A stretch of DNA of 10,108 nucleotides, taken from a virus. Within the stretch, counting starts at the first letter, position 1. Each line of letters begins with the position of its first letter. Shown one piece after another: positions 4,114-5,522 of this stretch. A model generated the notes under the pieces. The model was not told the DNA's origin, searched no databases, and saw only the letters and a program-made list of their open reading frames with translations. Made by a program: the position numbers and the translations under genes. The stretch is taken from UHGV virus genome UHGV-0351028; one strand, given 5' to 3'.

Positions 4114-4593
4114 ATGGATAAAATTAATTACCCACCCCTGTTTGAGCCAGGGTTCCATGACATGGATGAAGCTGGATTAAAATCGTATTGTGTCGATTGC
4201 TTTCCTTCATCATCCAGGCGAGGCATGCTATACTGTAATTTTATACAGCTACTCGAATCTATTCGAGAATTATCTGCTCAATATGGCTGTTTTACAGAAA
4301 TATGGGTTGATGGTTCATACACCACGTCTAAACCAGAGCCTGATGATATTGATATTTTGTTGGTATGTGACTATAGCAATATAAACTCAATACCTGTCAT
4401 GCTTCGGGGCCGCGTCGATAATTTGCTTGACCGAAACTACATCAAACAAAACTACAAAATTGATGTCCTACTACTCATGAAGAATTTAGATGACCCTAAC
4501 TATGATTATGAGTACTGGCGTAGCTACTGGCGCGGTTGGTTTGGTTTTGATCGCAGTGAAAACCCGAAAGGGTTAGTGAGGATTTTTTTATGA
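4114..4593 (+). CDS. Hypothetical protein with a minimal nucleotidyltransferase (Pol-beta-like) signature; first gene of a cassette in the rexAB position
   Basis: 159-aa ORF. Motif G-S-x9-D-I-D (EIWVDGSYTTSKPEPDDIDILLV) fits the GS...DxD nucleotidyltransferase signature. Trp/Tyr-rich C-terminus. Visibly AT-richer than the flanking immunity genes. Not RexA or RexB. Confidence 0.8.
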   Translation: MDKINYPPLFEPGFHDMDEAGLKSYCVDCFPSSSRRGMLYCNFIQLLESIRELSAQYGCFTEIWVDGSYTTSKPEPDDIDILLVCDYSNINSIPVMLRGRVDNLLDRNYIKQNYKIDVLLLMKNLDDPNYDYEYWRSYWRGWFGFDRSENPKGLVRIFL

Positions 4594-5522
4594 ATGATAA
4601 ATCAATGTTTAAAAATTGCGATAAACGCATTGATTTCATTCAAAAAGAAGTCGATGCAATGAAGCAAAACAAAACCAGGTCCTTTGCTGACATGCTTCTT
4701 TATCGCTCCATGGATTCTCATCTGAGCGATTTGAAGGCCGAAAAATTAAAGCAAGATAGTCGGCACCCACTTATCGATTTTTTTGAGCTGCGGCTGAAAG
4801 GCTCTGAGGTTGACTTTGGCTCTATTCCTTTAGAGCTGCTTGGGGCTATTTCAACAAATCTTGCAGCGCTAATACAAAGAGCAACACACAAAATTGCCTC
4901 AGGCAAGGACTCAAAAAAAGTTCCCTACGACGTGAAAAGCTCCTTAAACCTCAGGCTGGCTGATTTATCCCCTGGGTCTACAAAATTGGGCGTCACCTTC
5001 TCTACAGGAATAGCAGAATTAGTAGAAACAGTACCCAGCAAGGCTGTAAAAGGCATATTCGATTTGTTGTTAAGCGATGACGACAACAACTTCATGAATC
5101 ACGTCGCTGAAATTGGATACAATTCCACTGTAAGCCTTAAGAGAATCGTAGAGGAATGCGATAAACACAACTTAACATTTGATGCAAGTTGGACCGGTCC
5201 ATTTAGTAATGGCACCAAGGTGGCAACTATTGACTCCAATAAAATTAAGTACTTGGTGAGTAGACTTACATCAACCATTTCATCCCCTCCCATTACTGAA
5301 ACGGTTACAGGCGAACTGGTCGTTCTATCCAAATATGGGAAGCTGGAGCTTGATGTTGGTGGTGAACATTTAAAGGCTTCCTATCCGATTGAAATGCTAG
5401 ATTTAATACAAAAAAAACACAAGGTCGGACAGATTGTTTCTCTTTTAGTGGAGACTACTGAGATTCACAATGATCGCATAGGTCTGTACCGTAAAAACCA
5501 TCTTGTTAAATCGGTTCTTTAA
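4590..5522 (+). CDS. Hypothetical protein (310 aa), translationally coupled partner of the nucleotidyltransferase-like gene
   Basis: Start ATG overlaps the upstream stop (ATGA, 4590-4593). No motif I can recognise. Long uninterrupted ORF followed directly by an intrinsic terminator. Confidence 0.8.
   Translation: MNDKSMFKNCDKRIDFIQKEVDAMKQNKTRSFADMLLYRSMDSHLSDLKAEKLKQDSRHPLIDFFELRLKGSEVDFGSIPLELLGAISTNLAALIQRATHKIASGKDSKKVPYDVKSSLNLRLADLSPGSTKLGVTFSTGIAELVETVPSKAVKGIFDLLLSDDDNNFMNHVAEIGYNSTVSLKRIVEECDKHNLTFDASWTGPFSNGTKVATIDSNKIKYLVSRLTSTISSPPITETVTGELVVLSKYGKLELDVGGEHLKASYPIEMLDLIQKKHKVGQIVSLLVETTEIHNDRIGLYRKNHLVKSVL

Follow-up and report, generated by a model that had tools for sequence, protein, structure and literature searches.

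What might two genes do that stand where lambda carries rexA and rexB? The question is posed by a 10,108-nucleotide stretch of the virus genome UHGV-0351028, which we call the window, and in which a phage repressor gene is followed by two overlapping genes, A (4114-4593) and B (4590-5522). An earlier note, written from the sequence alone, had described B as the larger partner of a nucleotidyltransferase (NTase)-like gene, without a recognizable domain and possibly an effector or sensor; our results support that interpretation in part. The answer we favor, with a probability of roughly 45%, is that B is the non-enzymatic sensor or adaptor subunit of an NTase-based module that is expressed in the lysogen and acts in exclusion, in abortive infection or in the manner of a toxin-antitoxin system.

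Gene B is real and conserved. A Shine-Dalgarno sequence, GAGGA, lies 7 nt upstream of its start, and its ATG shares an ATGA with the TGA stop of the 159-aa open reading frame (ORF) of A. Close homologs of B number 72 in Enterobacterales, nearly all of them 310 aa long, and a profile run against 1.84 billion representative proteins returned 271 clusters at 50% identity (E <= 0.001), nearly all of 300-325 aa and matching end to end. Purifying selection on both genes is strong: dN/dS is ~0.06 for B against an 87%-identical allele, and A has the same value. The pair is present in 18 of 5426 complete E. coli genomes, 100% identical in 14 of these, and a hypothetical protein of phage mEpX1 is 100% identical to B; over the 1409 bp of A and B the window differs from mEpX1 by 2 nt, both synonymous. 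Six PADLOC models of PDC-M63B match B, the best at 7.5e-45 over residues 23-304, and all six match every one of 134 diverse B homologs, while PHROG 6603 (function unknown) is the sole PHROG match. Neither Pfam nor NCBIfam has a family that matches B or one of the 134 family members, and searches of the PDB by sequence with B as a single protein, as a shallow profile and as a deep profile returned nothing meaningful. The description of B as lacking a recognizable domain thus holds for Pfam and NCBIfam, but it has to yield to the matches with PDC-M63B and PHROG 6603 and to the OB fold predicted at its C-terminus.

The gene upstream is the enzyme of the pair. A matches Pfam DUF6932 at 1.7e-24 and PADLOC PDC-M63A at 1.8e-41 over residues 1-158; among 50 diverse A homologs, DUF6932 is found in all 50, NTP_transf_2 in 18, DNA_pol_B_palm in 17 and Polbeta in 11. 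Residues G67-S68 (4312-4317), D78 (4345-4347), D80 (4351-4353) and D117 (4462-4464) are invariant across the 50, and judged by these motifs A is therefore a minimal pol-beta-type nucleotidyltransferase with its catalytic residues intact, as the NTase-like label had anticipated. Searches of the PDB by sequence, with A as a single protein and as a profile, gave nothing meaningful; at E <= 0.1 the profile found no HalB chain or other solved NTase, and it gave a motif-level match to a CD-NTase below threshold, at E = 0.19.

The pairing of A with B is obligate. A lies directly 5' of B in all 18 curated diverse loci, in all 60 evaluable viral loci obtained by searching with B and in all 19 evaluable distant viral loci obtained with A, and the only viral loci without the partner are those cut by contig ends. 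Distant B homologs (21-31% identity) always have A directly upstream, and distant A homologs, in Flavobacterium, Marinobacter and Bermanella, always have a B homolog directly downstream. A single apparent orphan B (locus L005) had to be discarded as such: it has an intact A gene that is merely unlisted in the source. The most common arrangement is a 4-nt overlap between the two genes (13 of 18 diverse loci, 59 of 60 viral loci), which, together with the Shine-Dalgarno sequence and the constant upstream position of A, bears out the translational coupling that the earlier note had proposed. The identities of A and B across loci correlate (r = 0.90), with A the more conserved of the two in 140 of 153 locus pairs.

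In lambdoid prophages, exclusion genes have their textbook site in the rexAB slot, and it is there that the pair is located. Family matches and blastn against lambda place the window in a lambdoid prophage with lambda-type immunity, of which it spans the immunity region and the early region. From cro through cI, window positions 3091-3995 are 97% identical to lambda 38100-37196 by blastn; this homology ends at 3995, 31 nt past the cI stop, the next 1533 bp are unrelated, and homology restarts with 90% identity at 5529, the last base of the rexB stop codon. From the junctions at 3995/3996 and 5528/5529 it therefore follows that the cassette swaps out rexA-rexB precisely, with the terminator and pL kept; the terminator lies in sequence 90% identical to the lambda region 3' of rexB. 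The G+C content is 0.37-0.43 in the cassette and 0.44-0.50 in its flanks, and no non-coding RNA or tRNA was found inside it. In other lambdoid phages the same slot holds rexAB, hicAB or other small gene sets. The likeness to RexA and RexB is one of place: A and B have the same orientation, between cI and tImm and upstream of pL, and like rexAB they make a pair that the lysogen presumably expresses. They are not homologous to the Rex proteins, with no blastn similarity to lambda across the cassette and no match to a Rex family or to a Rex model of PADLOC, and B has no transmembrane segment, whereas RexB is a multi-pass membrane protein.

The position behind the repressor recurs across many immunity types. 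The order of CI-type repressor, A and B is found in phages mEpX1, PhiR30_1 and Erwinia vB_EhrS_59 and in five of seven enterobacterial species genomes; in IMG/VR, 56 of the 57 loci with an upstream ORF have there a member of a cluster whose representative is a CI-type repressor (helix-turn-helix (HTH) and/or S24). One B allele, 100% identical throughout, stands behind at least six repressor alleles in IMG/VR contigs L021-L035, the lambda cI, mEpX1-type, 245-aa and 255-aa types among them, which indicates that the cassette was recently shuffled among immunity regions. The pair also travels outside phages. In Flavobacterium sp. AS60 (L008:1-10459; JAKIHN010000003.1 25678-36136), an integron-like array of small genes in one direction holds 14 attC-like repeats of ~145 nt each, ending in ...GCGGAACGTTAG, and there A and B (5001-6384) form a single cassette between the repeats at 4845-4990 and 6389-6534; phage-defense genes are known to reside in integron cassettes (bioRxiv 10.1101/2024.07.02.601719). 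In other chromosomes A and B are a stand-alone two-gene islet. The pair behaves as a self-contained mobile unit. On one Bermanella-like contig (L010:1-4566) it lies beside, and divergent from, an error-prone polymerase cassette of the imuB (IMS)/dnaE2 type, a single case and probably a coincidence.

What, then, is B? AlphaFold2 modeled the whole protein with a pLDDT of 80 and a pTM of 0.70, and residues 1-232, on a deeper alignment, with a pLDDT of 91 and a pTM of 0.84. The models predict, with good confidence, a protein of three parts: a helical hairpin, a central alpha/beta domain and a C-terminal OB fold. The hairpin region has a weak match to keratin coiled coils (E = 0.052), and the C-terminal part of the predicted structure is a beta-barrel of five strands in which a helix separates the third strand from the fourth, as in OB folds. 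For the central domain, residues 58-231, we found no solved structural neighbor, and a profile search of a 5.8-billion-protein set with this domain returned family members only and no other architectures. There are likenesses with proteins of the PDC-M32A, PDC-M02B and DUF6575 type: by Foldseek, the model of residues 1-232 matches a phage protein annotated as DUF6575 (E = 1.8e-8, TM 0.56) and a protein of Leptospira phage LE1, and residues ~62-146 match PDC-M32A models in 47 of the 134 family members (best 7e-8) and PDC-M02B in 10. Those proteins differ in their length of 370-380 aa and in their C-termini and partners, and Pfam DUF6575 does not match B. DUF6575 occurs in one validated E. coli defense system (PMC9519451).

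Conservation in B is concentrated in the central domain, at [DE]63, R68, G77, P80, L81, G105, R122, G129, G176, W201 and Ser130. The last of these (4977-4979) is identical in 134 of 134 sequences, against a mean column identity of 31%, and is placed at the turn of a beta-hairpin beside G129, itself kept in 99% of sequences. B has no Walker A motif, the highest Kyte-Doolittle mean over 19 residues is 1.38, with no stretch of transmembrane strength, and no catalytic fold was matched; the absence of Walker and transmembrane motifs had been read correctly before. So had the weakness of the R-x4-H string YRSMDSHL (residues 38-45), floated as HEPN-like but distrusted: in close homologs R39 is replaced by D, N or S and H44 by Y, neither is conserved in the wide family, and both (R39-x4-H44, 4704-4721) lie in a long helix of the two-helix hairpin, with no HEPN bundle around them. 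The HEPN idea is therefore rejected.

On the reading we prefer, A and B would form a complex in the lysogen, with the translation of B coupled to that of A. A would supply the sole catalytic activity, nucleotidyl transfer, and B would recognize a trigger or substrate and then gate or direct A, in what would be an anti-phage or an addiction role. The lack of a catalytic fold in B, the stronger conservation of A and the OB fold of B make an enzymatic effector seem less likely to us than a sensor, adaptor or regulated partner. That B directs or gates A, in particular, is suggested by A being the only enzyme and the slower-evolving protein, and by minimal NTases having no substrate-binding domain of their own. 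The precise swap into the rexAB slot behind many repressors, along with travel in an integron, points to a self-contained and selected module. Since that module replaces rexAB in a prophage of lambda immunity, A and B are probably co-transcribed with cI from pRM in the lysogen.

Several observations weigh against this proposal. The OB fold is conserved mainly in structure, with no family-wide conserved aromatic or basic residues and a pI of 6.9, so nucleic-acid binding is not assured, and the central domain could conceal an unrecognized catalytic or toxic activity. No conserved promoter was found 5' of A, where only the ribosome-binding site is kept across loci, and the part of the cassette that separates cI from A holds a weak terminator-like hairpin (4052-4071, plus strand; 6 bp with 3 G-C pairs and a poor T run). 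Co-transcription with cI is the likeliest arrangement for a pair with no conserved promoter, but expression in the lysogen is, with that hairpin in the way, an assumption. In the only published experiment, deletion of PDC-M63AB from a prophage of E. coli NILS69 left infection by 10 virulent double-stranded DNA phages unchanged (PMC12409345); the authors, who had chosen PDC-M63AB for its prophage location, call their own phage panel narrow (PMC12409345). As for the hairpin, it might attenuate read-through from pRM, and it is not kept in other loci.

The arrangement of the two genes also invites a reading on the lines of the type VII toxin-antitoxin system HepT-MntA, in which A would constitutively nucleotidylate B, most plausibly on Ser130, and so keep it inert; were the activity or supply of A to fail, because a phage took over or the element was lost, B would be left unmodified and toxic, for example through binding of its OB fold to replication intermediates. 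HepT-MntA likewise has a minimal NTase gene first, directly 5' of and overlapping the partner gene, and this order is kept in every locus we examined. Both enzymes carry the G-S and D-x-D motifs of the pol-beta type, some A homologs match the MNT-type families NTP_transf_2 and Polbeta, the invariant Ser130 is placed at the beta-hairpin turn beside G129, and an addiction module would be at home in the integron cassette arrays and prophages where the pair occurs. B, however, is a 310-aa protein of hairpin, novel domain and OB fold, with no conserved R-x4-6-H, no HEPN motif or bundle and no recognizable toxic domain, and the A family is DUF6932, not a solved MntA. A is also the more conserved protein, the double deletion in NILS69 was obtained without comment (although a double deletion is uninformative on toxicity), and the nucleotide modification of B is so far only hypothetical. 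We judge this reading unlikely. More doubtful is a new kind of NTase-gated guard, with A either nucleotidylating or priming an oligonucleotide on Ser130, or making an oligonucleotide that is held by the OB fold; phage interference with this mark would free B as a soluble effector built on the fold of residues 58-231. Were it true, Hailong or HepT-MntA would have a cytosolic counterpart whose effector or sensor domain is wholly new, and which is found in integron cassettes and, in many lambdoid phages, in the rexAB slot.

A closer copy of Hailong itself seems less probable again. In that system, as summarized in PMC13434031, the NTase HalB makes oligo-dA that gates its partner HalA (Tan et al. 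2025); by analogy, A would make a template-independent oligonucleotide that holds B inactive through the OB fold, and a phage nuclease degrading it would free B. The precedent of HalB and HalA is in its favor, as is the constant pairing of an NTase with intact catalytic residues and a protein whose C-terminal fold is of a single-stranded DNA-binding type; both systems are two-gene operons of an NTase and a partner that could bind single-stranded nucleic acid. But HalA is a transmembrane ion channel and B, with its low hydropathy, is soluble and has no transmembrane segment or known effector domain; the OB surface is neither conserved nor basic; and the A profile, run against the PDB, detected no link to HalB. 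The least probable of the readings we weighed is an accessory role of the phage outside defense, in DNA metabolism or the control of lysogeny, such as the processing of DNA ends or branched DNA by a RuvA-like OB fold together with a pol-beta NTase. A profile of the OB region did not detect E. coli RuvA, a comparison that gives a lead only; more generally, the OB fold of B shows no sequence-level relation to those of RuvA domain I, SSB, RPA and PriB, lacks conserved ligand-binding residues and has next to it a domain that none of those proteins possesses. Nor is the pair confined to phages: it is found as an integron cassette, in isolated islets and embedded in restriction-modification (RM), BREX or DISARM loci, and its slot in the prophage is that of rexAB exclusion and not the recombination module. 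Remote-homology and structure searches found no characterized non-defense family for B, and on this point the earlier interpretation therefore stands.

Two further families of NTase-based systems were compared with the sensor or adaptor module that we favor. AbiE/MenAT (DUF1814) resembles it as a toxin-antitoxin or abortive-infection module whose sole enzyme is an NTase of the pol-beta superfamily, but no PADLOC AbiE model or DUF1814 matches A or B, and A has ~150 aa against ~290 aa. AbiE/MenAT systems also have the NTase as the second gene, behind that of a winged helix-turn-helix antitoxin. From CBASS the pair is set apart in that no PADLOC CBASS model was matched and the CD-NTase motif match of A is sub-threshold.

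How much of this was known? Both PADLOC models of PDC-M63 are matched by adjacent genes on the same strand, with no sequence-level difference from that candidate, and at the level of sequence the window pair is therefore a member of it. As described by its authors, PDC-M63 was defined by embedding in BREX, DISARM or type I RM loci and was released untested (Payne et al. 2024, bioRxiv 10.1101/2024.01.29.577857). In supplementary file 8 of that preprint it is cassette CAS_00189 (FAM_00167>>FAM_00523), with 45 instances, and FAM_00167 also heads CAS_00073 (FAM_00167>>FAM_01519), with 269 instances and marked 'Reject' (bioRxiv 10.1101/2024.01.29.577857). One M63 family may thus have a second, more common partner; no such pairing was seen in the loci examined here. 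Our literature search found no paper mentioning DUF6932, and experimental work on PDC-M63 in one study only. That the pair is a catalogued defense candidate, and that it sits in a prophage exclusion slot, agrees with the defense-type context assumed in the earlier note.

The genes are accordingly not new as a discovery, being in GenBank (phage mEpX1) and in PADLOC (PDC-M63). New here are the exact replacement of rexAB, the recurrent position behind the repressor across many immunity types and the copy in an integron cassette, as well as the strict pairing of A and B, the three-part architecture of B with its C-terminal OB fold, the invariant Ser130 and the rejection of HEPN. PDC-M63 as described has no fold, mechanism or preferred genomic slot; the fold and the slot are added here. 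With the genes already deposited and catalogued, and the one experimental test negative, the discovery value is limited. Knowing what A transfers, and onto what, would nonetheless add a mechanism to the few NTase-based systems (HepT-MntA, AbiE/MenAT, CBASS, Hailong), and would also show whether the candidates that PADLOC puts forward by 'guilt by embedding' are real.

Table 1. Features of the window, the cassette and its genes first
Feature	Position	Strand	Remarks
Gene B	4590-5522	+	ATG start, 310 aa; PDC-M63B, PHROG 6603
B residues 10-57, two-helix hairpin (coiled-coil-like)	4617-4760	+	AlphaFold2 helices 10-25 and 32-57
B residues 58-231, central alpha/beta domain (predicted)	4761-5282	+	family-wide conserved polar residues including Ser130
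B residues 232-310, C-terminal OB fold (predicted)	5283-5519	+	beta1-3, helix, beta4-5
Translational coupling signals	4578-4593	+	GAGGA Shine-Dalgarno 4578-4582; ATGA start/stop overlap 4590-4593
Gene A	4114-4593	+	159 aa; DUF6932 minimal pol-beta-type nucleotidyltransferase (PDC-M63A)
Cassette in place of lambda rexA-rexB	3996-5528	+	1533 bp; blastn against lambda, G+C
Lambda-type cI repressor	3251-3964	+	HTH_3 and Peptidase_S24; directly upstream of the cassette, same strand
tImm-like intrinsic terminator	5529-5554	+	strong; 7-bp stem, 6 G-C pairs, then TTTCTTT; closes the presumed cI-A-B transcription unit
pL promoter	5737-5765	+	TTGACA-17-GATACT; bounds the immunity slot downstream, with N following
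N	6014-6397	+	N_peptide family, 1.7e-15
cro	2950-3150	-	
cII	2516-2812	-	
Replication gene O	1484-2344	-	

Beyond the cassette, the genes that follow pL are N, Ral, cIII, Kil, a Sak4-like annealase, SSB, Abc2 and Ead/Ea22. A match to Rfam Lambda_thermo, the cIII thermoregulator, at the start of cIII (6937-6995, plus strand; 88.5 bits) confirms a lambda-type pL operon. Just 3' of the tImm-like terminator, at 5561-5577, lies a C9A8 homopolymer tract in surroundings ~90% identical to lambda. On the minus strand, a 164-aa ORF resembling a homing endonuclease, with NUMOD4 and HNH_3 (882-1376), stands between O and a primase/helicase-like ORF (70-897). The latter, which stops after 275 aa, spans no more than positions 32-254 of a PHROG profile of 801 aa, and may be what is left of a split or truncated primase-helicase adjoining the homing endonuclease.

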